From Schlesneria sp. (GTDB lineage: Bacteria; Planctomycetota; Planctomycetia; Planctomycetales; Planctomycetaceae), in NCBI GenBank assembly GCA_028291515.1, contig JAQGHU010000093.1:16486-80485 (forward strand): a DNA stretch of 64,000 nucleotides, read 5' to 3'. The position numbers were made by a program, and so were the translations under genes. The notes below the pieces were generated by a model. That model had not been told where the DNA came from. It saw nothing but the letters and a program-made list of their open reading frames with translations, and searched no databases. Shown in pieces: positions 48,152-64,000 of the stretch (within the stretch, counting starts at the first letter, position 1; each line of letters opens with the position of its first letter).

Positions 48152-48187
48152 GTTTGGCCTGACGCTGATGCGTGAAAGGGCTCCGTC

Positions 48188-48703
48188 TCACTCTGGAGGA
48201 GAGCCATTTGATTCGACACCACTTCGTTTGAGCAGATCGAGCGAACCCGCGATCGAGTTCTGATCTGCCGATCCCTCTACCTCGATGACGACCTCGTTGG
48301 GTTCGCGGCGTACAGTTGCCCGTAACGTCGATTTCCTGCTGTCAAAGTAAAGCCCGCGAAGGCGATCGTGCTTGATGAGTTCGTCGCCAGCACAGGCGTC
48401 GAATGGAACGGACTCGTCTCGCCAGAAGATCGTCACGACGTACTCCCCCGGTGCAGCTCCGTCGTCGATTGCATGGGTCATTAATCGGAAGGATCCATCC
48501 GGGTCCGTGAAACCGACAGGCCGCGCGATGACGCGTTGATCAACCGCATGGAACACCAGATTCGCTCTTCCGGCCGGCTTGCCCCCGACCAGCAACGTCC
48601 CTTTCACGGGAAACGTCTCGGCTTTCTGACAGCCGCTGCAACCTGCGGCACAGGTCAGCACGGCTACCAACAGCCATCCAGGAAACGCATTCCCGCGATG
48701 CAT
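48188..48703 (-). CDS. DUF1559-associated lipoprotein (carboxypeptidase-regulatory-like fold)
   Basis: AGCSGC; PVKGTL..GKPA; TDPDGSF; DDGAAPGEYVVTI. Confidence 0.8.
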   Translation of the reverse strand: MHRGNAFPGWLLVAVLTCAAGCSGCQKAETFPVKGTLLVGGKPAGRANLVFHAVDQRVIARPVGFTDPDGSFRLMTHAIDDGAAPGEYVVTIFWRDESVPFDACAGDELIKHDRLRGLYFDSRKSTLRATVRREPNEVVIEVEGSADQNSIAGSLDLLKRSGVESNGSPPE

Positions 48704-48787
48704 ATCTGGAGTTCCTTTACGAGGCCGCTTGTACAGAGAAACGAGACCAACCAATCCAGTGACAGATTCGCTTTGCGATGCCCCATA

Positions 48788-49222
48788 TCAATTCAACTGA
48801 AACGGCTCCAATACATTTGTCCCATCTCTGACAATCACTTTCCAATCGCTCTTGGCGGGGTCACTGTACTTACCTTCGAATTCATCGATTTCTATTTCAA
48901 TGCCATACTTTGGATCGGTGCCGACGCCGGGCTTCGTTAAGGTAACGACATACGCGCCGTGAGGTGCCCCATTGCCGGGCGCGCCAGTCCCGACGATGAA
49001 CGTGCCATTCGGTCCCGTGTCACCCACAACGCCCCACTTGATCGGCCCCATGTCGAATTCCGGATGCATCGTCACCCGGATCCCCGGCACCCCTTTGCCG
49101 TTCAGCATCACCCTGCCCGAAACAGGTACCGTCTTCGGCGGCGAGACCTGCTGACTGCAGCCGATCAAGACGCCGACAGCCAGAACCAAAGCAGAACCAA
49201 GCAAACAAACTCGCGAACACAT
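48788..49222 (-). CDS. DUF1559-associated lipoprotein (carboxypeptidase-regulatory-like fold)
   Basis: LIGC; PVSGRV..GKGV; GAPHGAYVVTL; GKYSDP. Confidence 0.8.
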   Translation of the reverse strand: MCSRVCLLGSALVLAVGVLIGCSQQVSPPKTVPVSGRVMLNGKGVPGIRVTMHPEFDMGPIKWGVVGDTGPNGTFIVGTGAPGNGAPHGAYVVTLTKPGVGTDPKYGIEIEIDEFEGKYSDPAKSDWKVIVRDGTNVLEPFQLN

Positions 49223-49338
49223 GTTCCAAATTCTTTCGAAAAGCGCAAGAATTATCTGATCAGCAGGGTACCACGGTTTTGGAATCCTCGACAAAGCCGT
49301 GTCTTCTCCGCGCTTTGACCGAAGCTTTACTCTCCAAC

Positions 49339-50475
49339 TTAGAAATCGCCCACTACTTCGCCCCCAGCACGGCTGCCCAGCGCCTTGTAGACTCCCATAT
49401 CAATGGACTGGCTGACGAATCGCACGGTGCCGTCACAGAACAGAAAATGACCTCCGCCGGTGTGAGTGCTGCGGAACGAGTACATCGGGCTGTTGATGAC
49501 CGCGTCCTTAAGCGCAGTCACATCACCAACGATGGTCCGAGTGTAATAGGGGCCGCTCACGACATTCATCTTGACGTTCATCGTCCCTTCATCAAAGTAG
49601 TCACCGTCGTCAGCCGCCCAGGATGTCAATCCAGACGACGGAACCGGTGGCGTCACCGGGGACTTGTTGACCATTGATGTCGAGAACCCCTGCAAGTTGT
49701 GGTGCGACTCGCCGACAGCAATCGTGCTGGAGAGTCCGTCGGTGAGGTTCTTAAACTGAAGTTTGCATTCCTTCTCGTCGTTCCACCACAGCGGATCGGC
49801 CGTGTGTCGCGCGATCAGTGCGTCAGCAATCCCCTGATTGAACCCACAATCCCACGCGGTCACAAAGACCCCATCGCTATGGCTGTAGGTATAACTCGGG
49901 CTCGACTTCGTACCGATGATATCAGTCGGTTGAGGAGGTGAATGGAGTTCGTAACTACCTCGACTCCACCCATAGCTGGAATAGCAAGGAAAATATGGAT
50001 TGAGCGGCGTCGGCATCGACGGACACAAAAAGACGGGAAGCGGTCGGTTCGCCATCTGCGCATTCGTCGGCCCGCCAACCACAGCCGGAGTCGCGTTGTC
50101 GCCTCCGCTGACATGGAGATTCCACTGAGAATAGATATTACCCTGGTCCAAAAATGGAAGCAGAAAGATTGATGGTGGCGTGTGACGGTAGTTGTACCAG
50201 ATCTTGTCCATACCGGGATTCAGGTCTTCCACGCCAGCTCCGCAGATCGCGAGGCCCGGAATGTAACCCCGTGAATCATGAAAGTTGTGGATCGCCAAGC
50301 CGATCTGTTTGAGATTGTTCTTGCACTGGGCCCGCCGAGCCGCCTCGCGCGCCTGTTGGACGGCGGGCAGCAGCAGGGAAATCAGGACCGCGATAATGGC
50401 GATGACGACGAGCAATTCGATCAATGTGAAACCGGAGCGTCGCCCCGAAGCTGTTCTGGCCCGCTTGGCTTTCAT
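49339..50475 (-). CDS. DUF1559 prepilin-like protein
   Basis: [34 protein letters not shown]; H-x9-DG (HTGGGHFLFCDG). Confidence 0.95.
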   Translation of the reverse strand: MKAKRARTASGRRSGFTLIELLVVIAIIAVLISLLLPAVQQAREAARRAQCKNNLKQIGLAIHNFHDSRGYIPGLAICGAGVEDLNPGMDKIWYNYRHTPPSIFLLPFLDQGNIYSQWNLHVSGGDNATPAVVGGPTNAQMANRPLPVFLCPSMPTPLNPYFPCYSSYGWSRGSYELHSPPQPTDIIGTKSSPSYTYSHSDGVFVTAWDCGFNQGIADALIARHTADPLWWNDEKECKLQFKNLTDGLSSTIAVGESHHNLQGFSTSMVNKSPVTPPVPSSGLTSWAADDGDYFDEGTMNVKMNVVSGPYYTRTIVGDVTALKDAVINSPMYSFRSTHTGGGHFLFCDGTVRFVSQSIDMGVYKALGSRAGGEVVGDF

Positions 50476-50576
50476 GAGTTAAATCCTTGAACAAAGATCA
50501 TCGAACTAAAGGAAAATGTCGTCTCACAACCAAGTGAGTGTGCAAGTTCGCAGAGCGACTTCGGGGCAATTGAGTT

Positions 50577-50801
50577 TCAGTGCGGACATTGGGCTTGAAC
50601 GCTGAAGTACATCGCGTGATATCGCAGCATTTGAACCGCCTCCTCTCGCGTCACGTTTTCAGACTGAATGCGTTCCGCATCGGTGGTGAATGCCGCGGCA
50701 GCGTGCTGCAGAAGTCGCCGATCCGGTAAACCACCCGACGGACGAGAAACAAATACACACACACCGATCATTGCTGCCGTAATCAATAACAGGTAGCGCA
50801 T
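50577..50801 (-). CDS. Small hypothetical membrane/secreted protein
   Basis: MRYLLLITAAMIGVCVFVS hydrophobic leader. Confidence 0.5.
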   Translation of the reverse strand: MRYLLLITAAMIGVCVFVSRPSGGLPDRRLLQHAAAAFTTDAERIQSENVTREEAVQMLRYHAMYFSVQAQCPH

Positions 50802-50894
50802 GATGGTGACCCCCTCAACATGAAAAACGTTCGCGTCGGATCGTCTGTGTCGAAAAGGAGGTTCCCTTGAACCGATCACGCTTGTGGCATCCGG

Positions 50895-52025
50895 CTATCT
50901 CGCTTTCGCTGCTTTTGGTTCACAGTACTTCAGTGAGATCAGGACGTAGGCGGTCCCCAAGTCTGGGTTACTCTCGTACCAGCGTTCGACCTTGTTCAGC
51001 CAAGCCCCGTTTTCTTGTTGCGTCTTGAAGAGTTGCTCGGCCAATTCCTTGCGCCAATCGTGCGACTTTCCCTGGCCGTCCTTGAGGATGTCGATATCCA
51101 TCGTCGACAGGACTTTCGAGAACATCTGGTAGTAATACAGCACTCCTTGCTGACCCATCCCAGGATTCTCTTCAACCGTGTAATACTTCGTAACCCATTC
51201 CACCGCCGTTTTGACTCGCTGATCGTCAGGAGTCAGGCCAGCATAGATCATCCCCTTCAGCCCCGCGTAGGTGATGGAGCCGTAGGAGCGTAATCCTCCA
51301 TTCGGTGCTGTTCCGGCCGGAGAACTGCCGCCTGCCGCGATCGTGTAATAGAAGCCGCCGTCATTAATCAACGACGAGAACTTCGTGGTGTTATGGCTGG
51401 TCTCAAGATTCTGGCATCGCGACAGGAAGACAAGCGCCTTCTGCAACGCAGGGTCATCCGACTTGGCTCCCGCCGATTTCAAGGCATCCATGAAGAAAAT
51501 GGTGTTCGACATATCGGGGCGATCGCCATTCCGCCCATATCCTGCTCCTCCGTATTTGATGTCGGAACCGTCGATCGATTCAGATTCATCCCACTGCAGT
51601 TTGCGCAGGAATTCCGCTCCCTTCGCAATCGCATCGGTGTACTTGCCCTCCTTGTTCGCAGCTTGCAGGGCCATCATGCAAATCGAAGTCTCATAGTTCT
51701 TCTGCGTCCCCTTCGGCGCATAAATGCCACCATCGGGCCGAATGTGTTTATTGAGGTAGGTGAGCGCCTTCTCCATCACGGGATCAGTCGCTGGAACCCC
51801 ACTGATCAGTAGTGAATAGGTAACCAGTCCCGAGACTCCCAAGGCATCTTCTGAAGTCCAGAAACCATCGGTCGCCTGGCTGGACTTCAAAAAATTGACC
51901 GCTTTTTCACGGGACTTGGACAGTGCTTCGGCATTCGGCCCGATCGCCTGTGCATTCAGTTGCCCTGCGCTGAGCACCATCAAAACACCTGCCAGAATCC
52001 TAAATCGTGATCGAATGCAATTCAT
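50895..52025 (-). CDS. Secreted prenyltransferase/squalene-cyclase-repeat protein
   Basis: Signal peptide; FLKSSQATDGFW, FLRKLQW, FLSRCQ, DGGFYY, QQENGAW repeats. Confidence 0.8.
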   Translation of the reverse strand: MNCIRSRFRILAGVLMVLSAGQLNAQAIGPNAEALSKSREKAVNFLKSSQATDGFWTSEDALGVSGLVTYSLLISGVPATDPVMEKALTYLNKHIRPDGGIYAPKGTQKNYETSICMMALQAANKEGKYTDAIAKGAEFLRKLQWDESESIDGSDIKYGGAGYGRNGDRPDMSNTIFFMDALKSAGAKSDDPALQKALVFLSRCQNLETSHNTTKFSSLINDGGFYYTIAAGGSSPAGTAPNGGLRSYGSITYAGLKGMIYAGLTPDDQRVKTAVEWVTKYYTVEENPGMGQQGVLYYYQMFSKVLSTMDIDILKDGQGKSHDWRKELAEQLFKTQQENGAWLNKVERWYESNPDLGTAYVLISLKYCEPKAAKAR

Positions 52026-52391
52026 AGCAGCCCCTAGTTCGAGTGAAATCAAAAGACAGGCGGACCTTGATCGGCAACATGATCGAAATGGCCGACCCGT
52101 GTCGGGATCTACGACTTTGCCAGACTCGAAGCAGCAAAGCATTTTCCGCGCCGCTGTTCATCCCTGCGCCTCAATGGCATTTCCCCATCTGTTACAGGGA
52201 GAATCGGCCGATCACGATGTCCGTTTATCCGACATCACTGTCGATGGAATCGACACCGCGATCCAAATCGCCTTCATGCCAAAGGACGTGTGATGGAAGA
52301 GTAGAGTGCTGGCTGTCACAAGCAGCTGTGCCAAAATAGTTGCCACCGCAATTGCTTACTTAAAAAAATGTAGTGAGAGAGCTCCTCACCA

Positions 52392-52447
52392 TTGCATGAC
52401 GGTGTGATGAAAGTAGAATACGGACTGAGCTTGAGACTCAGTCTCAA
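52392..52447 (+). promoter_or_regulatory. Sigma70-like promoter and palindromic operator
   Basis: TTGCAT (52392), 16 nt, TAGAAT (52414); perfect palindrome TTGAGACTCAGTCTCAA at 52431-52447. Confidence 0.6.
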
Positions 52448-52593
52448 CTCTTTGATCTTGGTCTCGCCAGCACTTCATCACGCGGCCAGCCATGACCTGA
52501 TCGCCATCACTCCTGATGAGCAGAATCGGTTTCTTACACTTGGGCTACGTCTTCGTAGCGTCTTGGCCTTGCCTCTCAGCGTTTGGAGTCCAA

Positions 52594-53553
52594 ATGCAGT
52601 CGATGCGTCTTCGAAAACACGGCTTTACGTTAATTGAGTTACTGGTAGTCATTGCCATCATTGCTGTCTTGGTGGCTCTACTTTTACCTGCGGTCCAGCA
52701 GGCTCGCGAGGCGGCTCGACGGACGCAGTGCAAAAACAACATGCGCCAGCTTGGCTTGGCGGCCCATAACTATCACGACACCTATAACATCGTTCCACCG
52801 GGATGTGTGGCCTATATTTCTCCACCCGCATACGGCACATATGCCGCGCATGGAACTGGGGTCTTCATATTGCCGTTTATCGAACAAGGCAATCTCTATA
52901 GCCGCTACGATTTCAACAAGGGTTTTGATCACAACGACAATCAGTTTGTGGTCAACACCCAGATCCCTGCTTATCAATGCCCGTCGACTCCTGGAGGCGG
53001 ACGCACGATGGCTTCGAATAATGCGTTCGCGTCCTCATTCGGAGGTTTACCTGCCCAGAATGGCAGCAACACGGTGGCAACATCCGATTACAACGGGATG
53101 CGATGGGTTTATGATGTCAATGCGACAAAAAACACGGGATTGATGTCCCATATCTGGGTCTTGCCTTATTCGATCTCAGAAACCTCTCGGTTCGCTGATT
53201 GTACGGATGGACTGTCGAATACGATTCTCTATCACGAGATGGCCGGGCGACCCACCGCCTACCGCAATGGCAAACCAGCGGGCACCTCGACCTGGGTTCA
53301 AGCACTGTGGTCTGCCCCCTGGTCATTCTCGACCGGCATCGACATCTATACCAGTTCACCTGACGGAACGACTCAAGGGGGGCCTTGCATCATCAACTGC
53401 ACCAATGAATGGCAACCCTACAGTTTTCATACAGGTGGCGTGCAAATCACGCTCGCAGACGGTTCCGGCCGTTTTCTGAGCCAGAACATCAGTGGCAAGG
53501 TTTTCTGGGCTCTCTGTGGTCGCGCGGATGGCCAGGTCGTCGGCGAATTCTAG
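52594..53553 (+). CDS. DUF1559 prepilin-like protein
   Basis: [14 protein letters not shown]; HTGGVQITLADG; GGAG before ATG 52594. Confidence 0.95.
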   Translation: MQSMRLRKHGFTLIELLVVIAIIAVLVALLLPAVQQAREAARRTQCKNNMRQLGLAAHNYHDTYNIVPPGCVAYISPPAYGTYAAHGTGVFILPFIEQGNLYSRYDFNKGFDHNDNQFVVNTQIPAYQCPSTPGGGRTMASNNAFASSFGGLPAQNGSNTVATSDYNGMRWVYDVNATKNTGLMSHIWVLPYSISETSRFADCTDGLSNTILYHEMAGRPTAYRNGKPAGTSTWVQALWSAPWSFSTGIDIYTSSPDGTTQGGPCIINCTNEWQPYSFHTGGVQITLADGSGRFLSQNISGKVFWALCGRADGQVVGEF

Positions 53554-53646
53554 CCTCCACATTCGTGATCGTGCGAAGATTTTAACGCGTTGACCATACG
53601 CATTTCCAATGCCCCAAGTTGGCCGTTCGACTGAACGATATCTCGA

Positions 53647-54102
53647 ATGCCTGCAACAATTCTCCGTCTGCTTTCCGCGACATCGGCCTTCAGCCTGCTG
53701 CTTGTGCTTGGATGCGGCTCAGCGGACCGAACTCATCTGCCAGTTTACCCCACCTCCGGCCGATTGAGCGTGGGCGGCAAGCCCGCTCAAGGGGTCTCCG
53801 TCGTCTTGAATCCGATTGAAGGCAGTTCCGCCGCCAAGAAGGGAATAGCTCCCTCGGGAACGTCAGATGAATCGGGCAGCTTCGTCATCTCGACCTATGC
53901 GCAGGACGACGGCGCACCGGCCGGAGATTACAAAGTGACTCTTCAATGGATGCGAACTGAGCCGGAAGCAAACGGTCCTCCAGCAGGCTTTAGCGCCCCG
54001 CGAGACAAGTTCGAGGGACGCTTCCGCAATCCAACCGTATCAACATGGTCGACCAAGATCGAAGAAGGAAACAATGTCCTCGAGCACCTCACCATTGATT
54101 GA
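53647..54102 (+). CDS. DUF1559-associated lipoprotein
   Basis: VLGC lipobox; PTSGRL..GKPA; DDGAPAGDYKVT. Confidence 0.8.
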   Translation: MPATILRLLSATSAFSLLLVLGCGSADRTHLPVYPTSGRLSVGGKPAQGVSVVLNPIEGSSAAKKGIAPSGTSDESGSFVISTYAQDDGAPAGDYKVTLQWMRTEPEANGPPAGFSAPRDKFEGRFRNPTVSTWSTKIEEGNNVLEHLTID

Positions 54103-55474
54103 TGCGTCCGCGGAGCCGGAAGACAACGTCGATAGCACCGCTGCGACGAACGATTCAACTCCTGGTCCACAGAACGCACCCCGCCAGGCCAGCCTCTATC
54201 GAGCGATCTGGCGTTGGCACTTCTACGCCGGCTTGATCGTGGCCCCGTTTTTCTTCTTCGCATCCGCCACGGGAGCGTTATACGTCTTTAGCATTGAACT
54301 ATCGAATCTGTTCTATGCGGACAAGTACTTCGTGACGCCGACGGAACAAATGCTTTCGTACGATGAGCAGCTCGCAAAACTGAAGGAGCAGGCCGCCGAC
54401 TTCACGGAGTTAGACGGGATGCGTGTCTGGAATGACCGCACTCGAACGACCCATTTCATCGCTCACGCGTTTCCGGGCGGGCATACCGCCAAAGGTCAAA
54501 TGCATCGCATTTACTATGTGAATCCCTACACAGGAAGCCTGCTGGGTTCGCAACTGATGGAGCATGAATTCTTCCACATCGTGCTCGATCTGCACCGGTC
54601 CGTCTGTGCTGGTACGTTCGGACGACTGCTTGTGGAACTGGCAACGAGTTGGGGAATCGTCCTCGTCATCACGGGTGTCTACTTGTGGTGGCCTCGCAAA
54701 GGGGAATGGCGCAGCGGCGGCATCTTCTGGCCTCGCTTGTCGGCGGCGTTCTATGTTGCCCTGCGGGATCTCCATTCGATCGCGGGCATCTTCTTCGCCC
54801 CGCTGGCGGTCATTGTGCTGTTCACGGGCCTGTTTGTCTCATTGATTTGGGGCACTGGTTTCAATTGGGTTTCCATGAAAATGGAGCAATCCTTGATGGA
54901 ATTCTTCACCCACGCGAACTCTCCGCCAGCATCCGATACCGTGGCAAGGCTGCAACCCGTCGTGACCGCGGCGCTGCAGCACAGCCAGCCAGGAGATGAT
55001 CTCTATTTCCAATTGGCAGAAAAGCCCGAGCACGCTCACAAGATCTATGTGATGTACAAAGGGGACACCAATACAGTACGAGGGCTCGACATCGACCAAT
55101 ACACTGGAAACGTCATGTCGACGACGACAACCGAACAGCTGGAGCCGATGGTTCGACTGCTCGCGATCGCAGTGTCGCTCCACCAGGGGAAGACATTCGG
55201 CCTCACGTCAAAGGTGATCGCATTTGTGACGTGCCTCGTTTTGATGGGCCTGTCGGTCACCGGCATCTGGATGTGGTGGGTCCGTCGACCAAAGGGGCAA
55301 ACCGGTTTTCCCTCACGCTTGCCGACCAGAATTCCGGGATGGCTCTGGTGTGTGATCGCAGGCATCAGCGTCGCGTTCCCTGCAGTCGGAGCTTCGCTGG
55401 TCGTGATCATCAGCGTTGAAGTGATTCTAAGCTCAATCCGCCGCACCCGGTCAACGGGAATTCGAAAAGCATAA
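54074..55474 (+). CDS. PepSY-associated TM helix protein (PiuB-like)
   Basis: WRWHFYAGL, YVNPYTG, LDLH, ITGVYLWWPR, RDLH, IDQYTG, LHQG..FG. Confidence 0.9.
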   Translation: MSSSTSPLIDASAEPEDNVDSTAATNDSTPGPQNAPRQASLYRAIWRWHFYAGLIVAPFFFFASATGALYVFSIELSNLFYADKYFVTPTEQMLSYDEQLAKLKEQAADFTELDGMRVWNDRTRTTHFIAHAFPGGHTAKGQMHRIYYVNPYTGSLLGSQLMEHEFFHIVLDLHRSVCAGTFGRLLVELATSWGIVLVITGVYLWWPRKGEWRSGGIFWPRLSAAFYVALRDLHSIAGIFFAPLAVIVLFTGLFVSLIWGTGFNWVSMKMEQSLMEFFTHANSPPASDTVARLQPVVTAALQHSQPGDDLYFQLAEKPEHAHKIYVMYKGDTNTVRGLDIDQYTGNVMSTTTTEQLEPMVRLLAIAVSLHQGKTFGLTSKVIAFVTCLVLMGLSVTGIWMWWVRRPKGQTGFPSRLPTRIPGWLWCVIAGISVAFPAVGASLVVIISVEVILSSIRRTRSTGIRKA

Positions 55475-55521
55475 GGATCCAGGGTGCGTCTGTGACGAAC
55501 TGCTCGCATCTGACGCACAGA

Positions 55522-55962
55522 CTATTTCCCTTCCGGCCCCATAAACCGGTGTGGTCGTGAATCATCGCTCGAAACATGCCAAATCGGATCGACTCCCACA
55601 GGCAGAGGGTCCGCTCGCACGAAAAGGCGGGTTGGCGCAGACGGAAAAAAACAGAACAGCGCCGGACATAACCAGCCTTCCATCTGCTGCCCCGCAATCA
55701 GACCCGAATACCAGTTCCCACCGAGCGGGGATTCCGCGTCCGCTGCTCGGAGCCAATTCAATTCGATGTCATGGCCGCTAAAAGGCACGTCGCTGAACTG
55801 CATCGCGAATCCACGCGACGCGTTTGGAATTCTTTTCTCTTCAACCATCCGAGAGATCATCTCGGACATCCCGCACACAAATGCCTCTTCCTTCAAATAG
55901 GTCTTTTCGTCGTCAAAGACCCAATTGAGGCCCATCAAATAGGGATAGATCATCATTGTCAT
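55522..55962 (-). CDS. Conserved hypothetical protein (DUF6717-like)
   Basis: WVFDD..EAFV.G, FSD.PF, GGNWY, MEGWLCPAL. Confidence 0.6.
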   Translation of the reverse strand: MTMMIYPYLMGLNWVFDDEKTYLKEEAFVCGMSEMISRMVEEKRIPNASRGFAMQFSDVPFSGHDIELNWLRAADAESPLGGNWYSGLIAGQQMEGWLCPALFCFFPSAPTRLFVRADPLPVGVDPIWHVSSDDSRPHRFMGPEGK

Positions 55963-56175
55963 CGCGAGTCCTCAAGAGGAAATTTCAAACACATTGGCAA
56001 GCCGATTTTGACTCAATCCCGCGCCACAACGCGTGGAACGCAATGCTGTGCCACTTGCACCAGCTTCGGACATCAAGCGATCTTGAGCACTGCAATTTTC
56101 TCACCAACCGTCGCCGCTGGATAACTTCACCGAATCAGTGGGCATTCTCGCCGACATCTTAACGAGACTGCCCGG

Positions 56176-56640
56176 CTATTCAGCAATCTGCAGTTGGAGC
56201 ATCGTCTCGATATCGTCGCAAAGTCTGCGGATCTCACGTGCTTGAATCATCACGCCTTGACTGTCTATCGCGTGCTCGTCCTCTTGTCGAGTTCTCTGCT
56301 CTTTGATCACAATCGGTGCGGTCATCGCTCGAGTGTAGATGGCAATTATTTTGTTGTGGAGAACCTCATCATTACTGGAAGCTTGCTCCGCAGTTGGCTG
56401 CGGTATTTTGAGGCGAATTGCTGCGACCCTCGCCTCCTCTGCTGTCGGCTTTGCCTCCAGTTTGTCGGCGATCGATCGTGCTTGTTTCAGATAATCAACT
56501 ACGGTCGCCTTGAACTCTTCCAGTGTTGGCTGGGATTCAGGATCCACCGTAATCGTCGTCTCTGCAATGGGAAGCGGGGGCGCGGGTAATCCGCAGCCGA
56601 TGACCGCGACGCCAAGAGTCAACATGTAACTACGGTACAT
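56176..56640 (-). CDS. Hypothetical lipoprotein
   Basis: VAVIGC lipobox; helical body. Confidence 0.6.
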   Translation of the reverse strand: MYRSYMLTLGVAVIGCGLPAPPLPIAETTITVDPESQPTLEEFKATVVDYLKQARSIADKLEAKPTAEEARVAAIRLKIPQPTAEQASSNDEVLHNKIIAIYTRAMTAPIVIKEQRTRQEDEHAIDSQGVMIQAREIRRLCDDIETMLQLQIAE

Positions 56641-56718
56641 CTCGTTTTTCCATTTTCATTGAGATCGAAAGACGTATGGTAATGGTGCGTACCGAAGACT
56701 CCACACACCTACTTGCTC

Positions 56719-56733
56719 GAATTATCATTCTCA
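56719..56733. promoter_or_regulatory. Candidate Fur-family box
   Basis: GAATTATCATTCTCA (reverse complement TGAGAATGATAATTC) in a divergent promoter region. Confidence 0.4.
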
Positions 56734-56915
56734 CGCTGATGCACGAAATGAGGAAAAATGGTTGTTGACACGGCCCTCTCACCATCGCCAGATTGAATCC
56801 GCGAGCATTGATGGTAAGATCGTTACGACCTGTAGACTCCTTACCAAGTCCCCAAATCATGATGGCACGACGTTCATTGATGACGCTGCGACACCAGACT
56901 GATCTGGTTCGTGGA

Positions 56916-57428
56916 ATGTTCGTCGACGTGCGTCGCGGGATGACTCGACGAAGCCTTTGCCGGGCCTTTGTGTTGGTGATGTATATCGTGATGAACCTGG
57001 GACTGCCAACGGGCTTTGGACCACAGGCGAAAGCGAGTTCGGCGAAAGAGGCTTGTCGTTGTTCGCCGGAATCTCGTGCGGCCGGCCGCTGCTGTTGTGC
57101 GAAAGGTGCTACAACAGGTGCAAAGACGGGCTGCTGTGCGACTCGCGTTGTTGTCGCGACAAAAAGCTGTTGCGCGAAGAAGGGGATCGAAGCCGCTGTG
57201 AAGAAGGTGCAGCCGATCCATGACGATTCAATCGCGTGGAGCGGTGCTTGTCCTTGTGGCCCCACTGACGCGCCGATCATGCTGTTCTGTCCGCACCCTC
57301 GAATTCTGGCCGAGGCGAACTCGCTTGAATTTCAATTCCCGACTGGCGAGCGTGCTCCCACCCTGACCGATGCCCCGTGCGGCTTGCGGACTCGTCCGTC
57401 TGTTCCTCCCCCCGAGTTGGCCGTCTGA
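56916..57428 (+). CDS. Cys-rich membrane/secreted protein with C-terminal PSVPPP
   Basis: Hydrophobic N-terminal segment; 14 Cys (CRC, CCC, CC, CC, CPC); start uncertain. Confidence 0.65.
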   Translation: MFVDVRRGMTRRSLCRAFVLVMYIVMNLGLPTGFGPQAKASSAKEACRCSPESRAAGRCCCAKGATTGAKTGCCATRVVVATKSCCAKKGIEAAVKKVQPIHDDSIAWSGACPCGPTDAPIMLFCPHPRILAEANSLEFQFPTGERAPTLTDAPCGLRTRPSVPPPELAV

Positions 57429-57567
57429 CGAATGCCTGCTGCGCGGAACTCGCGCAGCGATTGACGACTTCGTCGATCTGTGACGGCTTGTGGCCCCGGT
57501 TCAACACCGAGGCCGCCGTCTGCGATTCGTCATGCCCGGTTTCCACGTTTGTTTCTGAGGGGGAACA

Positions 57568-58557
57568 ATGTTCAAATTCAGCCGCCGTCCGCGCGGATTT
57601 ACGTTGATTGAGTTACTGGTGGTGATCGCCATCATCGCGATACTGATCGCGCTATTGCTTCCAGCCGTCCAACAAGCTCGCGAAGCTGCTCGTCGAGCCC
57701 AATGCAAGAACAACCTGAAGCAACTCGGGTTGGCGTTACACAATTATGAATCGAGTCACTCGGCGATCCCATTGGGTCGAGTCGGCTTTCCTAAGGTCTT
57801 TTCAGCACATGCCCAGTTGCTGCCGTATCTGGACGGCAGCAACCTGTACAACCTGATCGACTTCAACACGGCTCCCAACTTTGGAGCGCCATCAGCACCG
57901 ATGACACAGAACGAGATCGCCGCCCGAGCGGTCATTCCAGGGTATCTGTGCCCGAGTGATTTTGGACGTATGGCCGGTTCCGATTTCGGGCCGCTCAACT
58001 ATCCCGCCTGCGTCGGCAGTGGAGTGAACCGCTTGGCGACCGGCGGCGTCGACAGCAGTTCGATCAAGACGGGTGACGGCGTCATGTATTCGGGCTCAGC
58101 GACTAAATTTCGCGATGTGAGCGACGGCCTGTCGAACACAGCCGCCTTCAGCGAAAGCACGCTGGGACCGGGTAACAATCCATCCTCGCCAAGTGGCTCC
58201 GCGCCACAGAAGCCGGATAGCGAAGTGCTCGAACTGACCGGGGCGACCGTGACCACGGCCGCATCGTGTGGTTCAAGCAGCGGTGGCAACTGGTCCGGCC
58301 TGCGGGGTGCTAAGTGGCTGAACGGCCACTATGGCGACACGCTGTACAATCACTTCTACAATCCGAATTCGCGACAATACGATTGCGGGAACGCCAGCCA
58401 CAACTACGGGCTGACTGCCGCTCGCAGCCGACACGTCGGAGGCGTCCACGTCTGCCTGTGCGACGGCAGCGTCCGGTTCGTCAGCGAGAACGTCGACATC
58501 ACGATCTGGCAGGCGGTCGCCTCTCGGCAGGGGAGTGAGATCCTGGGCGAGTTTTAA
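57568..58557 (+). CDS. DUF1559 prepilin-like protein
   Basis: [14 protein letters not shown]; [12 protein letters not shown]. Confidence 0.95.
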
Positions 58558-58867
58558 TCGAGATAAAGGTGGGCGTGCCACTGGTTGGCCGCTTCGGACA
58601 ACCAGTGCGATTGCGATCAATCCGCCGAATGTGGACACGGGTTCTTTCTCATTTCTGACGGAGAATAAGGATTGACCCTCTAGACCGACTGAAGAACGAT
58701 CGGGATAATCGGTCGCTGGTGAAAAACCAATCTGAGTGGACCACAACTATCGGTCACACCAATCGACCGCTTCTCAAAGGTCGATCCGTGTGACCATTTT
58801 TTGTTGCGGATAAAAGAAGTCCTGGAGTCGTAGTGACTCACCATGCTTACAGAACTTGAAGACAGTA

Positions 58868-59701
58868 ATGGATTCGAACAACCTGGCGACTGAGCCGTCA
58901 CCGCCGAAAGTGCCCGAGCGCCGGTTGGGACGCCACATCTTCCTGGGGTTTCTTGGCAGCGTGGCTCTCGTCTACGGCAGCATTGTGTCATACAGCCTGC
59001 TCTTCCCACGACGAAACATCGACGCTGGCGAGATGAGCCTGCTGGAGCGGTGCCGCGAGATGTGCCTGGCCTACGGCTTGGTACCAACGGGGCATCTCGC
59101 CAACGACGCCAGGGCTTACCTACGATCGGAGAAACCGAAGCCGCTGGTACACCCGCTGCATGAGATTCTGTCGGACGAAAAGTTTGTCGTCCAGGAATCG
59201 CAGCCGCATCCGCTACTAGGGAGGCAAGCACCTGATTTCGAACTACCGGACGATCAGGGTAAGAAAGTCTCATTGCGAGGGACCTTGAAGGACGCGCCGG
59301 TCGTTGTCGTCTTCTATTACGGCTATCACTGCAATCATTGCGTTGGCCAACTGTTCGGATTGAACGAAGATTTGCGCCGCTTTACCGAGTTGGGAACCGA
59401 AGTCGTCGCGATCAGTGCCGACTCGCCGGAAATGACCACCAAGCGATTTGACGAGTACGGTCGATTCGACTTCCCTGTTCTGTCGGATGTGGACAGCAGC
59501 GTCGCCCAGGCGTATGGGGTGTATCAACCGGAAGCGAACGGCAAACCCGAAATCAAGCTGCACGGCACGTTCGTCATCGATGCCGATGGAACCGTGCTGT
59601 GGTGCAATTCGGGCAACAAACCATTTTTGGATAACCAGACACTGCTAACGGTGATCGCCAAGCAACATGGCTTGCTGACGACCGAAAAATCGGCTGAGTA
59701 A
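58868..59701 (+). CDS. Membrane-anchored AhpC/TSA (redoxin) protein
   Basis: One TM; APDFELPD, YYGYHCNHC, GTFVID. Confidence 0.85.
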   Translation: MDSNNLATEPSPPKVPERRLGRHIFLGFLGSVALVYGSIVSYSLLFPRRNIDAGEMSLLERCREMCLAYGLVPTGHLANDARAYLRSEKPKPLVHPLHEILSDEKFVVQESQPHPLLGRQAPDFELPDDQGKKVSLRGTLKDAPVVVVFYYGYHCNHCVGQLFGLNEDLRRFTELGTEVVAISADSPEMTTKRFDEYGRFDFPVLSDVDSSVAQAYGVYQPEANGKPEIKLHGTFVIDADGTVLWCNSGNKPFLDNQTLLTVIAKQHGLLTTEKSAE

Positions 59702-59724
59702 CCATTCGTACGAAGGTTCGAGTT

Positions 59725-60522
59725 ATGAATAAGCTTGTGATCGGGGTGATGGCTGTTGTCGGTATCGTCGGGCGCCTGCAGGCTCACGATACGTGGGTCC
59801 AGACGAACACGAACGTGATCCGAACGGGCGACGCGATCTACGTCGATCTGATGCTTGGCAATCACGGCAACGAGCATCGTGACTTCAAGCTCGCGAGCAA
59901 GACGACGCTCGACAGAGTGATCCTGAAGGTAAACGCGCCGAACGGAAAGAGCTTCGATCTGAAGGATCGCCTCAGTGATGTTGGCTATACGCCGAAGGAA
60001 GGATTCTGGAGCGGCCGGTTCGCCGCGACAGATCCCGGGCTGTACATGGTGGAACACTCGCGCGATTCGATCGTGAATCATGGCAGTCCGGCGAGATCGA
60101 TCCGCAGCGGCAAGACGTTCTTCGTCGTCAGCAAGTCGCTCGACAAAGTCGCCGATGACAATCCAGGATTCGACAAAGTGCTCGGGCATCCGCTGGAGAT
60201 CGTACCCGAAGCCAGCACGGTGACGCCGATGGGTCCCGACGTGCCGATCCGAGTCAAAGTGCTGTTTCGAGGGGAACCACTGAAGGACGCTCGCGTCTCA
60301 TTCATTCCACGAGGCGCGACGTTATCCGAGGGATTCGACGCGAACTTCGAACGAAAGACCAACGAAAACGGCCGTTGCTTCTTCATCCCCAAAGAGGGGA
60401 ACTACTATCTGGTGGTTGTGCATCACAAGACGGACGAAAAAGGAACTGACTACGAATCGACGGCGTATTCGGCGACATTGACGGTGTTTGTCCCCGAGGT
60501 CTGCCCGTGCTGCGGCGAGTAA
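59725..60522 (+). CDS. DUF4198 family protein
   Basis: Signal peptide then AHDTWV, GNHG, LEIVP, V.F.GEPL; ends CPCC. Confidence 0.75.
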   Translation: MNKLVIGVMAVVGIVGRLQAHDTWVQTNTNVIRTGDAIYVDLMLGNHGNEHRDFKLASKTTLDRVILKVNAPNGKSFDLKDRLSDVGYTPKEGFWSGRFAATDPGLYMVEHSRDSIVNHGSPARSIRSGKTFFVVSKSLDKVADDNPGFDKVLGHPLEIVPEASTVTPMGPDVPIRVKVLFRGEPLKDARVSFIPRGATLSEGFDANFERKTNENGRCFFIPKEGNYYLVVVHHKTDEKGTDYESTAYSATLTVFVPEVCPCCGE

Positions 60523-60684
60523 ACGGTGTCGGGAATGGCCATTTTCTCATTTCGGAGAATCCCATTCCGACACGATCGCGCAGAAGACTCGACAGCGAGG
60601 CGTATTCCGTTCAGAATATGCTCGCTTGCGAGCAGGTGTGACTGACGACTTGGTTTGCTTAATTCGATGGGAGAGTTTTGTTTC

Positions 60685-60960
60685 ATGGATACTCACGGTA
60701 GCGCGGCAGTGGTGGAAGGTGATCACGGACACGCAGTTCCCGAGAGTGGCGAACGTTTCGAGAAGGCGGAACTCGAGTACTTCGTCGACGCCGATCGAGA
60801 AGCGGGCAAGAACATCGGGAAACTGCTGGCTTTGGTGTTCCTGATCTCGTTCGTCCTGATGACCGGCGTCTGCACATGGATGATCACGCACAACAACCGC
60901 GGCCATGATCCTCAAGCCGGTGTTGGCGAAGACCCCAGTGCAACAGCCGAGCATCACTGA
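60685..60960 (+). CDS. Small single-TM protein with His-containing termini
   Basis: DHGH near the N-terminus, TM LLALVFLISFVLMTGVCTW, ends EHH. Confidence 0.6.
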   Translation: MDTHGSAAVVEGDHGHAVPESGERFEKAELEYFVDADREAGKNIGKLLALVFLISFVLMTGVCTWMITHNNRGHDPQAGVGEDPSATAEHH

Positions 60961-60996
60961 CATCCGCGAAGCCAGTCTTGCCTGCCTCTTAAAGTA

Positions 60997-61044
60997 GTAG
61001 GCACACTCCGTGTGCCGCGTCAGCACACAGAGTGTGCTGCCTAC
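60997..61044. repeat. GTAG-type REP pair
   Basis: GTAGGCACACTCCGTGTGCC followed by inverted GCACACAGAGTGTGCTGCCTAC. Confidence 0.65.
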
Positions 61045-61155
61045 CTTCAAGAGTCGAGTTCCTCGGCAGACGATTCAACCAGAAGCACGATCGAGCGGGT
61101 GACGCTGTCCCCGCTCTCGTCATTTTCAGGATCATGTCGTTCGCGTGCCATCAAC

Positions 61156-61289
61156 GTCATTCCCGCGGAGGCGGGAATCCATCTGTTCCGCAGTGGACCT
61201 TCATTAGCCGTCACCGCAGGACAAGATCCGTATCTCCTTCATCGCCTTCGTTCCACGACTCACTGGATTCCCGCCTACGCGGGAATGAC
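61156..61289. repeat. ATTCCC-N8-GGGAAT (dRS3-like) REP doublet
   Basis: GTCATTCCCGCGGAGGCGGGAATCCA and inverted TGGATTCCCGCCTACGCGGGAATGAC. Confidence 0.85.
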
Positions 61290-61614
61290 GGCTAGCGACT
61301 GAAAGCTGCTCACTTCACCTCGATTGCAACTCTCGTCCCGTTTGCAGTCTGGAGTTGTAACTTCTTCCTTCTCTGCAAGGTCAATTTCTGCCGGAAAGCT
61401 GTCGCAGGCGGCAGAATTCGCCGAAGCAGGCCGCTTTGGAGACTCTTCCAAGGCGATTTCGCAATTCGGAGTGCCGGCATTGCGGTTTGGCATCGCGCTT
61501 GCTTTTACGTCTCACATCACCAGGCCAACCGCAAACGACAACAAGGATGAACGGCCCGGTGATACACAAACGGATTCACGAACTTAGCTGGCAACTCGGA
61601 AAGGGCAGATTCAA

Positions 61615-61878
61615 ATGTTGGTGCTCACTCGCAAGCGAACTGAAATGATCAAGATCGGCGACGACATTGTCATCACCGTGATTCATACTTCGCGTGGATC
61701 AGTGAAGCTGGGGATTCAAGCACCATCGGATGTCCGCGTGTTGCGAGGCGAATTGCATGACCGTGCCGATGACGTTCAGCATGGCCCGGTCTATTCGGCC
61801 GATCGCGTCTCGAAACAGTTCGGTGCTGAATACGTCGCTGAGCTGGAAGACCAGATTCTGGTCAGTCTGGCAAAGTGA
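61615..61878 (+). CDS. csrA: Carbon storage regulator CsrA family
   Basis: MLVLTRK...IKIGDDIVITV...VKLGIQAP..V.VLRGEL. Confidence 0.93.
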   Translation: MLVLTRKRTEMIKIGDDIVITVIHTSRGSVKLGIQAPSDVRVLRGELHDRADDVQHGPVYSADRVSKQFGAEYVAELEDQILVSLAK

Positions 61879-61994
61879 ACAGACGGTGCCCCAAGGGGGC
61901 GGGGCATCGTTTCTAAACAACCGGGATTTTCGCGGCCAATCCCGGTTGTCTGGTTCTGGATCGGATTTCCACACCATTCCAAGGAAGGGTCGTC

Positions 61995-62186
61995 ATGAAG
62001 ACCAGTCAACATGCAATCGGGAACGTTTGGGACGATGCATCATTCCGCGAAGAATTCGCCGAACCCGCCATGGTCATTGACACCGTTCGCGATGCCGAAC
62101 GCCGTGCCACCATGGTCTTTGATCTCTTGCTCACCTATTTGAGCGATGCCGAGATGGCTGTGACTCGGCATCGCCCCGCGGCTTAG
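61995..62186 (+). CDS. Small hypothetical protein
   Basis: 63 aa; AAGGAAGGG upstream; follows csrA. Confidence 0.5.
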   Translation: MKTSQHAIGNVWDDASFREEFAEPAMVIDTVRDAERRATMVFDLLLTYLSDAEMAVTRHRPAA

Positions 62187-62266
62187 CCTGCGCTCGAAGC
62201 GGCTCGCACCTGACAACACACCGGGGCGATCGAAACGAGCCGCTTCGTCGCAGGTCAGCAGAGGTT

Positions 62267-62414
62267 TTAGCCACGGATTGAACACGGATGAAACACGGAT
62301 AAGGCAGGAATGTTTGAGGAGCGGAAGACATCAGGGCATCGATCAATCTGTCGATTAATCTACCTCTACTCTTCTTCCTAATCCGTGTTTCATCCGTGTT
62401 CAATCCGTGGCTAA
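62267..62414. repeat. Palindrome with tandem CACGGAT units
   Basis: Perfect 34-bp inverted repeat TTAGCCACGGATTGAACACGGATGAAACACGGAT. Confidence 0.9.
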
Positions 62415-62427
62415 ACCTCTTCCGTCG

Positions 62428-63681
62428 TCACTCATCCGGCAACGTTGTGGTGCCTGGTAGAAGATGCCCCATCTTGTCTCGCTTGGTCGCCAGATACTTG
62501 TCTCGCTGGCTCTCGTGAGGCGCGATGATCGGAACCTGACCTTCCAGCACCAGATCGAATCCTGGAAACGCATTCACTTTTTGCGGGTTATTCGTCAACA
62601 GCCGCACCGCGGACAAACCCAGGTCTTTCAAGATCTGCAGGCCCACGCCATAGTCTCGGGTATCCGCCTTGAAGCCGAGTTTGTGATTCGCTTCCACCGT
62701 GTCATAACCCTGGTCCTGCAGTTGATACGCTTTCAACTTCGCCAGCAGCCCGATTCCGCGTCCTTCTTGCGGCAGATAGACGACGGCACCGGTCCCTTCA
62801 GTGTGAATCATTTTCATCGCCATATGCAATTGGTCGCCGCAATCACATCGCAGCGAATCCAGAACATCTCCCGTAAAACACGAAGAATGGACTCGGACCA
62901 GTGGGGCAGGGACCGACGACAGATCGCCCCAGACGATGGCCAGCGGTTGCTGATCTTCGTGCTGAACTGAATAGGCGATCACTTTGAAATTGCCGTAATG
63001 CCGCGTCTCGAAGGGGACTTCGACTTCGCGTTTCACCAACTGTTCGCGCTGTCGGCGATAGCGAATGATCTGTTCGATCGAGATGAGAGGGATTTTATGT
63101 TTGAGCGAAAGTTCGCGCAGCTCGGCCATATCGGCCATGCCGGTTCCCTGATCACTGCAGATTTCGATCAAGGCACCGACAGGTGTCAGCCCGGCCATGC
63201 GCAGCAGGTCGACAGTGGCTTCCGTATGGCCAGCTCGGCGCAAGACGCCGCCGTCTTTGGCGAGCAACGGGTTAATGTGTCCTGGACGAACAAACTCGAC
63301 CGCCCGACTGTTCGGCTGTGCCATCGCCAGCAAGGTTCGGGTCCGATTCAGGGCGCTCACGCCGCTGCCCGCTTCACGGTGATCGATCGGAGTCAAAAAG
63401 TGAGTCTGGTTTGGAGCGTTGTTCCGATAGCTATCGACAATGGGAGACAATCCCAGGCGATCGGCGACTTCGCTTAACAACGGGGCGCATAGTACACCGG
63501 CTCCGCGGCGTAGCATGAAGTCGACCAGTTCCGGCGTCACCTTTTCGGCCGCGCAGATAAAGTCTCCCTCATTTTCGCGTTCTTCCGCATCCACCACGAT
63601 GACCAATTGTCCCGCCTTCAGCGCGGCCAAAGCATCTTCAAGTGAATCAAACGCATCGGAGGTCGAGTCGACAGGGATCAT
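62428..63681 (-). CDS. ribBA: Bifunctional DHBP synthase / GTP cyclohydrolase II
   Basis: RENEGD, PGHINPL, RAGHTEA, VRVHSSCFTGD..SLRCDCG, QEGRGIGL, LLTNNP. Confidence 0.96.
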   Translation of the reverse strand: MIPVDSTSDAFDSLEDALAALKAGQLVIVVDAEERENEGDFICAAEKVTPELVDFMLRRGAGVLCAPLLSEVADRLGLSPIVDSYRNNAPNQTHFLTPIDHREAGSGVSALNRTRTLLAMAQPNSRAVEFVRPGHINPLLAKDGGVLRRAGHTEATVDLLRMAGLTPVGALIEICSDQGTGMADMAELRELSLKHKIPLISIEQIIRYRRQREQLVKREVEVPFETRHYGNFKVIAYSVQHEDQQPLAIVWGDLSSVPAPLVRVHSSCFTGDVLDSLRCDCGDQLHMAMKMIHTEGTGAVVYLPQEGRGIGLLAKLKAYQLQDQGYDTVEANHKLGFKADTRDYGVGLQILKDLGLSAVRLLTNNPQKVNAFPGFDLVLEGQVPIIAPHESQRDKYLATKRDKMGHLLPGTTTLPDE

Positions 63682-64000
63682 GGTTCGAAGGAATCTTTGC
63701 AGGGAGACAAACGGGACGATTTCGCGATGCCGCTATTGTATGCGCTTTGTCTACTCATCGCCCGACCTGGCAGAAAATCCCACATGACTCAGGGCGAAAT
63801 GGATAGAATTCCTCAATCGCCGTCCGACAGACGCCATTCGCAATTGGAGCTGTTTCTCCCCTTTAAACCCGACAAATGGCACGATTGCACTACTTACCCC
63901 GACTCCACCTTCGACGAAAAGTCGTCGCCCCCGATACGACAGAGTTGATCGCAACAGCTTGACAAAGCAGCAGATGCCGATATGTTGGTGGTTGCGACTG

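Follow-up and report, generated by a model that had tools for sequence, protein, structure and literature searches.

One member of the PepSY_TM family of membrane proteins has been characterized as a siderophore reductase (PMC9426467), and reductases of the FoxB/PiuB type are encoded beside TonB-dependent receptors (TBDRs), as in the FoxA-FoxB pair (7ABW). In Proteobacteria, operons for TonB-dependent transporters (TBDTs) and/or PepSY_TM proteins are headed by CruR/DUF2946, a copper-sensing upstream open reading frame (ORF) recognizable by a CxxC motif, a spacing of 45±2 residues and an RAPP three residues before the stop codon (PMC9426467). Proteins of the DUF4198 family bind Zn (Zcp) or Ni via an N-terminal His (PMC12663993, PMC12537917), which follows the signal peptide in 79% of the family (PMC12537917). 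The DUF1559 family, also termed SBP_bac_10, has more paralogues than any other family in planctomycete genomes and has lacked an assigned function since the first of these was sequenced; the literature describes it as heavily expanded, with members in membrane fractions (PMC8567305), with flanking genes that often carry type-I or type-II signal peptides, and with 68 Planctopirus copies that include two essential ones (PMC10632474). Here we analyze a window, i.e., the whole 64,000-nucleotide stretch C64:16486-80485 of the 8.59-Mb genome of Schlesneria sp. (119 contigs, 100% complete; Planctomycetaceae, Planctomycetales), in which two DUF1559 genes are embedded in a cluster with PepSY_TM and DUF4198 genes. 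The sequence comparisons give good support to the reading that specific DUF1559 orthologues are functionally coupled to metal or siderophore genes, at the position of the TBDR, in a lineage devoid of TBDRs.

Genes were called from an ORF listing combined with Pfam and NCBIfam scans, and every gene that a first-pass annotation of this DNA had named in the cluster was recovered at its place. Locus 1 has the order DUF1559_A–lipoprotein–PepSY_TM, and locus 2 the order Cys-rich protein–DUF1559_B–redoxin–DUF4198–small His-rich membrane protein:

52516-53553 (likely start 52594), + strand: DUF1559_A (PF07596, 2e-54; N_methyl; H-X9-DG)
53647-54102, + strand: lipoprotein of 151 amino acids (aa) with lipobox VLGC (no Pfam match)
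54074-55474, + strand: PepSY_TM membrane protein of the FoxB/PiuB type (PF03929, 1.6e-60)
~56916-57428, + strand: Cys-rich membrane-anchored protein with 14 Cys, first gene of locus 2 (no Pfam match)
57568-58557, + strand: DUF1559_B (PF07596, 8e-56; also by NCBIfam)
58856-59701, + strand: membrane-anchored AhpC-TSA/Redoxin protein (Pfam) with an N-terminal transmembrane (TM) segment and a CNHC motif
59725-60522, + strand: DUF4198 protein (PF10670, 3.5e-24)
60667/60685-60960, + strand: small His-rich membrane protein, conserved in a sister Schlesneria metagenome-assembled genome (MAG; locus L001)

The first-pass annotation had noted that no TonB receptor, TonB or ExbBD is encoded in the window, and none was found there. 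The TonB-receptor inventory that had been proposed as a check extends this to the whole, 100%-complete genome, which yielded no TonB_dep_Rec barrel (PF00593) and no TonB C-terminal domain (TonB_C, PF03544) in scans with positive controls, and likewise no match to a TBDR hidden Markov model (HMM); outside the window, four ExbB-like and two ExbD-like ORFs are present on other contigs. Across the phylum, at least one TBDR copy was detected in 112 of 151 Planctomycetota genomes, and TBDRs are absent from 7 of the 8 genomes of the family to which the window belongs. We lean, at slightly better than even, towards a reading in which the cluster would serve envelope metal or metallophore acquisition with DUF1559 and a β-sandwich partner at the receptor position; the loss of TBDRs and of the TonB C-terminal domain from the Schlesneria lineage is part of this reading and shares the confidence given to the whole.

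The position in question is defined by PepSY_TM loci elsewhere. Among 37 loci of diderms other than planctomycetes and Firmicutes, 15 have a TBDR no more than 800 bp from PepSY_TM, its place being nearly always 0-15 bp upstream and in the same orientation; the corresponding count in Firmicutes is 0/30, and Planctomycetota lineages without DUF1559 have a TBDR beside PepSY_TM in 3/5 loci. This TBDR–PepSY_TM arrangement is seen in G088, G129 and G011, three genomes of other Planctomycetota families, with ExbB–ExbD in G088 and G011 and TonB_C in G088; Pfam detects the Plug domain in all three and the barrel in two, and none of them has a DUF1559 protein at E <= 1e-40, as against about 90 in the window genome. 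Among 18 full-length PepSY_TM loci of the Planctomycetia type (window included, with the same 800-bp threshold), seven have a DUF1559 gene nearby. In six of these it lies upstream on the same strand (the window, Allorhodopirellula, Gimesia, two loci of G141, a genome of the same family as the window, and one from G108), and in Blastopirellula it is immediately downstream of PepSY_TM. The claim that DUF1559 genes occupy the slot of the TBDR is supported by these counts: 7/18 in these loci set beside 15/37 elsewhere and 3/5 in the DUF1559-free Planctomycetota. The accompanying generalization, that PepSY_TM and DUF4198 genes typically flank TBDRs, holds for PepSY_TM in this sample, and its DUF4198 part rests on published gene contexts (PMC12537917).

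With 121 DUF1559 ORFs in the genome, or one per 71 kb, it might be argued that there is no functional link at all, and that numerous mobile DUF1559 cassettes land by chance beside metal genes or hitch-hike on a shared promoter. The unrelated neighbors of most cassettes and the roughly half of planctomycete PepSY_TM loci without DUF1559 would agree with this. The fraction of the genome lying near any DUF1559 gene is, however, only 1.6% for a limit of 600 bp, 3.1% for 1200 bp and 5.3% for 2100 bp, and the actual distances are 521 bp from PepSY_TM to DUF1559_A, 299 bp from the redoxin gene to DUF1559_B and 1168 bp from the DUF4198 gene to DUF1559_B. Set against a background of about 2%, 7/18 loci are far beyond expectation, with the proviso that orthologous loci are not independent observations.

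The strongest test of the adjacency is provided by orthologue clades. A maximum-likelihood tree of 113 full-length DUF1559 proteins (95 paralogues from the genome itself and 18 from fetched loci) recovers three exclusive clades. The first, sub1 (support 0.958), unites DUF1559_A with copies from G141 (L112) and Allorhodopirellula (L018), all three in the arrangement DUF1559–lipoprotein–PepSY_TM; it spans orders, Allorhodopirellula belonging to the Pirellulales. The second, sub2a (support 0.998), unites DUF1559_B with the G141 and G125 copies (L123, L125), and in all of its loci a Cys-rich gene stands in front and both a DUF4198 gene and a redoxin orthologue are present, these two being in swapped order in G141 and G125 relative to the window. 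The third, sub3 (support 0.999), comprises copies from Gimesia, Blastopirellula, G042 and G141, whose clusters hold Enterochelin_N/Esterase genes, PepSY_TM or half-size PepSY, DUF2271, DUF4198 or ABC transporters. A reciprocal metagenome search with the head of DUF1559_A agrees with this picture: matches of 79% and 70% identity with enough flanking sequence precede PepSY_TM genes (5.5e-134 and 3.1e-130), and downstream of a 68% relative lies the lipoprotein, after which the contig ends. The DUF1559 genes of both loci are specialized orthologues that keep their partners across genera or orders, and in the genome and loci compared here an enrichment in excess of the high DUF1559 background, called for as a check on the initial proposal, is borne out by distances, clades and metagenomes alike. 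These clades and the metagenome search, along with two further features discussed below, namely the CruR-type ORFs preceding DUF1559 genes and the purifying selection on the genes of the cluster, leave chance adjacency already disfavored and, in our estimate, very improbable.

Additional loci came to light in these comparisons. In genomes of the window's own family, two loci (L121:7923-13868 and L122:4596-8753) combine enterochelin-esterase-like, half-size PepSY, DUF2271 and DUF4198 genes with a sub3 DUF1559 gene, i.e., the proteobacterial PepSY/DUF2271/DUF4198 set plus a pilin-like gene. A more distant metagenome relative of DUF1559_A (33% identity) heads a same-strand series at L189:4308-9551 and L190:5710-10953, consisting of a CobW/COG0523 GTPase, a 227-aa protein, a protein with a prepilin-peptidase N-domain and a MoxR AAA ATPase. 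CobW/COG0523, a family of zinc metallochaperones, recurs in the Schlesneria genome at C48:2212-4308 (+), where a weak DUF4198-like ORF precedes such a GTPase (7e-157 to the metagenome copy) on a contig that also bears two Fur-family genes and a secretin. In the genome itself, the paralogue closest to the sub2 clade (46095-47159 within C85:44605-50137) has a gene for a 461-aa His-rich exported protein behind it; it stands opposite genes for a BlaI/CopY-like repressor and for a membrane protein like BlaR1, these identities being judged by eye from the sequence.

The PepSY_TM gene of locus 1 is single-copy in the genome, and its product belongs to the family by a full-length match (PF03929, 205.9 bits over model positions 1-295). 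Like FoxB (7ABW), with which it shares the four His positions in TM helices, those of its WHFY, DLHRS, DLHSI and SLHQG segments, its nearest same-strand neighbor upstream is the presumed uptake component. The differences are that the sequence similarity to FoxB is weak (E 1.3e-4) and that the upstream neighbors in the window are DUF1559 and the lipoprotein; heme binding and a reductase role are putative for the planctomycete protein. The redoxin of locus 2 matches AhpC-TSA (6.9e-30) and Redoxin (1.1e-19), with a ResA-subfamily match (3.7e-15) below cut-off, and is putatively a TlpA/ResA-like thiol:disulfide oxidoreductase; its orthologues likewise adjoin DUF4198 in L123 and L125. The small membrane protein at the end of the locus matched no family and has a His-rich N-terminus, DTHGSAAVVEGDHGH, and an HH at the C-terminus.

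The 151-aa lipoprotein of locus 1 offers a more general view of the DUF1559 genes. An iterated HMM search found 59 paralogues of it in the genome, 40 of which lie directly downstream of a DUF1559 gene, making this family the sole systematic neighbor of DUF1559 genome-wide; the other recurrent neighbors (DUF1501, sulfatase, FG-GAP/ASPIC, EF-hand/PD40, XylR-AraC and TPR proteins) are themselves expanded families and were set aside. The core of the lipoprotein aligns with the C-terminal β-sandwich of DUF4198 (hhalign, 96.5% probability, E 8.6e-10), and its AF2 model is a β-sandwich (pLDDT 87.8) with transthyretin-like proteins as the best Foldseek matches in the PDB. Judged by these profile and model comparisons, the partner lipoprotein is homologous to the DUF4198 β-sandwich; therefore, the DUF1559–(redoxin)–DUF4198 arrangement is a specialized form of the generic DUF1559–lipoprotein pair.

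The DUF4198 protein of the window scores well above the family threshold (PF10670, 86.5 bits against a cut-off of 34), and its predicted mature N-terminus is a His (GRLQA|HDTWV, with the cleavage site placed by eye); the AHDTW motif recurs in the DUF4198 proteins of L001, L123, L124 and L125. It thereby resembles Neisseria gonorrhoeae Zcp and the Ni-binding IsDUF4198 in Pfam family, N-terminal His, β-sandwich and metal-uptake gene context. It differs from them in its neighbors, which are a TBDR or NikR in Proteobacteria and DUF1559 with a TlpA-like redoxin here, and in having an additional C-terminal tail, CPCCGE; the His triad of Zcp is not alignable. The match to the Zcp structure (9MHI) is weak and confined to the β-sandwich part, and a mapping of the Zcp zinc ligands onto the window protein was discarded, the alignment spanning the β-sandwich only.

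The known properties of Zcp also suggest a different role for the cluster, namely periplasmic buffering of Cu, Zn or Ni, with delivery (e.g., to cuproenzymes) or detoxification, rather than import. The DUF4198 protein would then be the buffer, the redoxin and the Cys-rich protein would perform thiol chemistry, DUF1559 would be an inner-membrane scaffold or chaperone, and metals would enter by outer-membrane diffusion pores. Zcp does buffer zinc and is dispensable for uptake; the TM-anchored CNHC redoxin and the many Cys motifs of the cluster fit such thiol chemistry, and DUF1559 proteins of a related planctomycete were found in membrane fractions (PMC8567305). Import or processing functions are nevertheless what the enterochelin-esterase-like genes, ABC transporters and PepSY_TM of the sub3 clusters point to; further, proteobacterial acquisition operons are headed by CruR/DUF2946 leaders and PepSY_TM, and the positional equivalence with TBDRs is specific. 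We regard pure buffering as unlikely.

The comparison with CruR extends to the first gene of locus 2 and to two other places in the genome. The Cys-rich protein has CxC, CCC, CC and CPC motifs and a PPP four residues before its stop. Orthologues precede DUF1559 in three other loci (alignment A3), and in this small family, which occurs before sub2-type DUF1559 genes and includes a Cys-rich–DUF1559–PepSY_TM locus of G141 (L111), the CxC, CCC, CC and C columns as well as the PPP are invariant, the last lying 3-6 residues from the end. Its layout of N-terminal TM segment, Cys clusters and first position in the operon is CruR-like by analogy only. In comparison with the bp2923-bfrG-bp2921 operon of Bordetella pertussis (PMC9426467), the planctomycete arrangement has in common an exported or TM-anchored first gene with Cys motifs, a proline-rich, arrest-like motif 2-6 residues before the stop, a long intergenic gap, and a ‘receptor’ gene followed by PepSY_TM. 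Against these stand a receptor slot filled by a DUF1559 pilin-like gene instead of a 22-stranded TBDR, the lack of TonB, and, in the window's Cys-rich protein, CxC/CCC/CC/CPC with PPP instead of CxxC with RAPP; copper regulation is known for the Bordetella type.

When the roughly 42,000 six-frame ORFs between 60 and 300 aa in length were scanned for CxxC combined with a C-terminal R[AG]PP, exactly two ORFs in the whole genome were returned. Both have the pattern CxxC-43-RGPP-2, to be compared with the 45±2 residues and RAPP plus three residues of Bordetella, and both precede a same-strand DUF1559 gene, at 202 and 231 bp. The ORF at C80:3630-4031 scores above the DUF2946 threshold (25.1 bits against a cut-off of 23.7), and that at C9:45977-46414 scores below it (18.9 bits) and is preceded by a FUR-family gene (5.9e-15). 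Standing first in their operons, the two ORFs qualify as leaders of the CruR/DUF2946 type. Elsewhere in the phylum DUF2946 was found in 7 of 151 genomes, where the next gene encodes an unrelated exported protein of 400-460 aa and not DUF1559. The metal link suggested by the first-pass annotation is supported by partners of several kinds, including enterochelin-esterase-like genes, DUF2271, DUF2946/CruR leaders and a FUR-family regulator beside another DUF1559 gene. As for the gene order at these two places, C80:1243-4031 (-) reads DUF2946, a 202-nt gap, DUF1559 and then a beta-lactamase-like serine hydrolase, and C9:44769-48342 (-), a third metal-linked DUF1559 locus, reads Zn-ribbon/Peptidase_Mx, FUR-family regulator, DUF2946-like Cys/His protein and DUF1559.

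Turning to the DUF1559 proteins themselves, both belong to the H-X9-DG prepilin-type family, combining PF07596, the prepilin motif and H-X9-DG. The scores are 185.9 bits for PF07596, 34.5 for N_methyl and 29.1 for TIGR04294 in DUF1559_A, and 190.4, 36.6 and 40.6, respectively, in DUF1559_B. The type IV prepilin leader that had been ascribed to them is present in both copies as a class III signal (RKHG|FTLIE in DUF1559_A, RPRG|FTLIE in DUF1559_B) followed by the N-terminal helix, and 52594 is the likely start of DUF1559_A because the leader MQSMRLRKHG|FTLIELLVV begins there. H289, D299 and G300 are invariant across 26 paralogues. An AF2 model of DUF1559_B built from 26 paralogues (pLDDT 75, pTM 0.76) has an N-terminal helix of about 50 residues (13-64), a C-terminal sheet and two disordered loops; its best Foldseek matches (1AY2, 8TJ2, 5VXX and 6XXD) cover about 58 residues and the helix only. 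The solute-binding protein implied by the name SBP_bac_10 was rejected as an interpretation, the model being a long helix with a C-terminal sheet and no two-lobed fold appearing among the Foldseek matches. 

In these respects the proteins resemble pseudopilins of type II secretion systems (T2SS) and type IV minor pilins (GspG-K, PilA), with which they share a class III leader ending in G, the ensuing FTLIELLVV with Glu5, the N_methyl domain, a long pilin-matching N-terminal helix, and a host genome encoding a prepilin peptidase (here PilD-like) and secretins. Unlike the latter, they have a head of about 270 aa with H-X9-DG and no PDB match, and about 120 paralogues are scattered through the genome, usually lipoprotein-paired, and are not part of a gsp or pil operon; fibre assembly would be putative in their case. 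Secretin-domain matches in the genome number 12, which is unusually many; most are above cut-off, and they reach 1603 aa.

This resemblance raises the alternative of export, in which the DUF1559 proteins would be pseudopilin adaptors of a T2SS-like machine pushing out or displaying the neighboring lipoprotein or DUF4198 cargo on the surface, comparable to the T2SS and the lipoprotein PulA; the metal cluster would employ one of them to bring a metal-binding protein to the outside. The one-to-one pairing with a downstream lipoprotein (40/59), the many secretins together with a prepilin peptidase, and the intact pilin-type N-terminus are all as expected for such a machine. Nonetheless, there is no known case of cargo recognition by single pseudopilins of this kind, the 121 paralogues with their diverse heads would suit receptors more than pistons, and DUF1559 genes that stand in the place of the TBDR beside CruR leaders with no downstream lipoprotein are left unexplained. 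Taken together, we consider export quite unlikely.

For the favored reading, that of acquisition with DUF1559 and its β-sandwich partner at the receptor position, the following steps can be envisaged. The prepilin leader of DUF1559 would be cut by the PilD-like peptidase, after which the protein would either remain fixed in the inner membrane through its N-terminal helix or join a short pseudopilus under one of the approximately ten secretins. Within the envelope, its variable head could capture a metal as ion or chelate and hand it to the β-sandwich partner, i.e., the lipoprotein or the DUF4198 protein with its N-terminal His. PepSY_TM, as a heme reductase, may reduce Fe(III) or Cu(II); keeping the many Cys ligands reduced might fall to the membrane-anchored redoxin, and the Cys-rich, PPP-tailed product of the first gene might act as a CruR-like metal-sensing leader. 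We infer the pseudopilus import mechanism, the metal handled and the regulation from this gene content, with Cu, Fe, Ni and Zn as candidate metals.

Several observations weigh against this interpretation. Most planctomycete genomes hold DUF1559 together with a few TBDRs, and the two are therefore not strictly exclusive. A nearby DUF1559 gene is missing from eight or nine of the 18 PepSY_TM loci of the Planctomycetia type, and outside the Planctomycetaceae none of about 33 DUF4198 loci has one. Most DUF1559-lipoprotein cassettes adjoin unrelated genes (DUF1501, sulfatase, FG-GAP, TPR), which means that the DUF1559 family as a whole is not metal-specific. Zcp, the described DUF4198 protein, is a periplasmic zinc buffer dispensable for uptake (PMC12663993). 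The head of DUF1559_B has no structural match in the PDB (Foldseek, all E > 0.7), and since nothing beyond the pilin helix is matched, no binding site can be named in it. Finally, assignment of the window's Cys-rich protein to DUF2946 (PF11162) failed, there being no Pfam match at E <= 10 and no CxxC.

A far broader proposition may also be formulated, namely that the DUF1559 family and its transthyretin-like lipoproteins constitute combinatorial pseudopilin-type receptors which import metals, siderophores and probably other substrates in a TonB-free manner via secretin or crateriform pores, a T2SS-like machine being run for uptake and having fully replaced the TBDRs in Planctomycetaceae. We offer this as a doubtful, speculative extension. 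It recalls the proposal of fibre-mediated capture of macromolecules at planctomycete crateriform structures (Boedeker et al. 2017, PMC5394234), which likewise involves capture by pili-like fibres for periplasmic uptake in the same bacterial class, yet concerns dextran/polysaccharides and names no genes. The literature searched contains no proposal linking DUF1559 to metal uptake or TBDR loss, and a 2025 review of the phylum leaves TonB and siderophores unmentioned. The three DUF1559 orthologue groups tied to metal or siderophore genes at the position of the missing receptor provide a first testable function for the family. If this role is true, it would explain the uptake of chelated metals in a diderm lineage that has no TonB-dependent transport and would open a genetic route to the fibre-mediated uptake proposed for Planctomycetes.

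Comparison with the sister Schlesneria MAG (L001, 85-87% DNA identity to the window region) helps to delimit the module. In L001 both sub-operons are contiguous on one strand, with about 450 nt between PepSY_TM and the Cys-rich gene in place of a 1.27-kb stretch of the window (55522-56640), which contains two genes:

55522-55962, - strand: DUF6717 gene (Pfam)
56176-56640, - strand: lipoprotein gene, 154 aa, unrelated to the DUF1559-partner family

Being absent from the sister genome, these two genes are therefore not part of the module; the stretch is either an insertion in the window or a loss in L001. Mismatches between the window and L001, counted by codon position, are 9/9/78 for DUF1559_B, 12/6/66 for the redoxin, 6/1/55 for DUF4198, 5/4/17 for the small membrane protein (retained in L001 at 1.6e-60) and 33/25/74 for the Cys-rich gene, which is under weaker constraint than the other locus-2 genes. 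These counts show purifying selection on every gene of locus 2. A fragment reading ...RCCCAKGTTT..., like the CCC region of the Cys-rich protein, was noticed by eye in the PepSY_TM–Cys-rich spacer of the sister genome (L001:860-945) and may be a partial duplication.

The non-coding elements upstream of the two loci are the following:

52392-52419, + strand: promoter-like TTGCAT-16 nt-TAGAAT, read from the sequence
52423-52447, + strand: overlapping inverted repeats GACTGAG/CTCAGTC and TTGAGAC/GTCTCAA, the ‘operator’ of the first-pass annotation (sequence; a hairpin in the scan)
56713-56915, + strand: conserved non-coding leader of locus 2, from conservation against L001
56719-56730, + strand: ‘Fur-like box’ GAATTATCATTC, a 12-nt palindrome-like sequence overlapping a -10-like TATCAT
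56765-56770, + strand: TTGACA in the locus-2 leader

The repeats of the ‘operator’ directly follow the promoter-like element, and the 370 nt upstream of locus 1 that include them have no DNA counterpart in 20 other Schlesneria genomes, the sole match being the coding part of the pilin helix, a paralogue signal. The proposed Fur-like box is indeed present and retained in L001 with one substitution, but a reading as a Fur site is weak in view of the genome-wide distribution. Its 8 occurrences compare with an expectation of about 3.6, with the other sites not at metal genes, and a regulon is not indicated, the other GAATNATNATTC sites lying mostly inside or beside unrelated genes. Four Fur-family genes are present in the genome. 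The leader itself is better conserved against L001 (87-93% identity over 56760-56880) than the adjacent Cys-rich coding region (67-77%), and the mismatches in the 200 nt before the ATG of the Cys-rich gene (8/13/5) lack codon-position bias. It matched no Rfam family; the Rfam scan of 48000-64000 gave a sub-threshold plant miRNA only (62269-62412, + strand, 39.8 bits against a gathering threshold of 96), which was put down to chance, and an RNA structure in the leader is unsupported by its fold z-score of -0.97.

Just upstream of locus 1 and divergent from it lies a neighboring cassette, an addition to the first-pass gene list, composed of a third DUF1559 gene and two lipoproteins:

48188-48754 and 48788-49294, - strand: tandem pair of genes paralogous to the DUF1559-partner lipoprotein (phmmer, 151-aa lipoprotein as query, 4e-11 and 6e-16; no Pfam match)
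49339-50475, - strand: third DUF1559 gene, 5' of the tandem lipoproteins (PF07596, 1e-50; N_methyl, 7.7e-08)

On the other side, just downstream of the cluster, 62428-63681 (-) is occupied by a bifunctional RibBA gene (DHBP synthase/GTP cyclohydrolase II).

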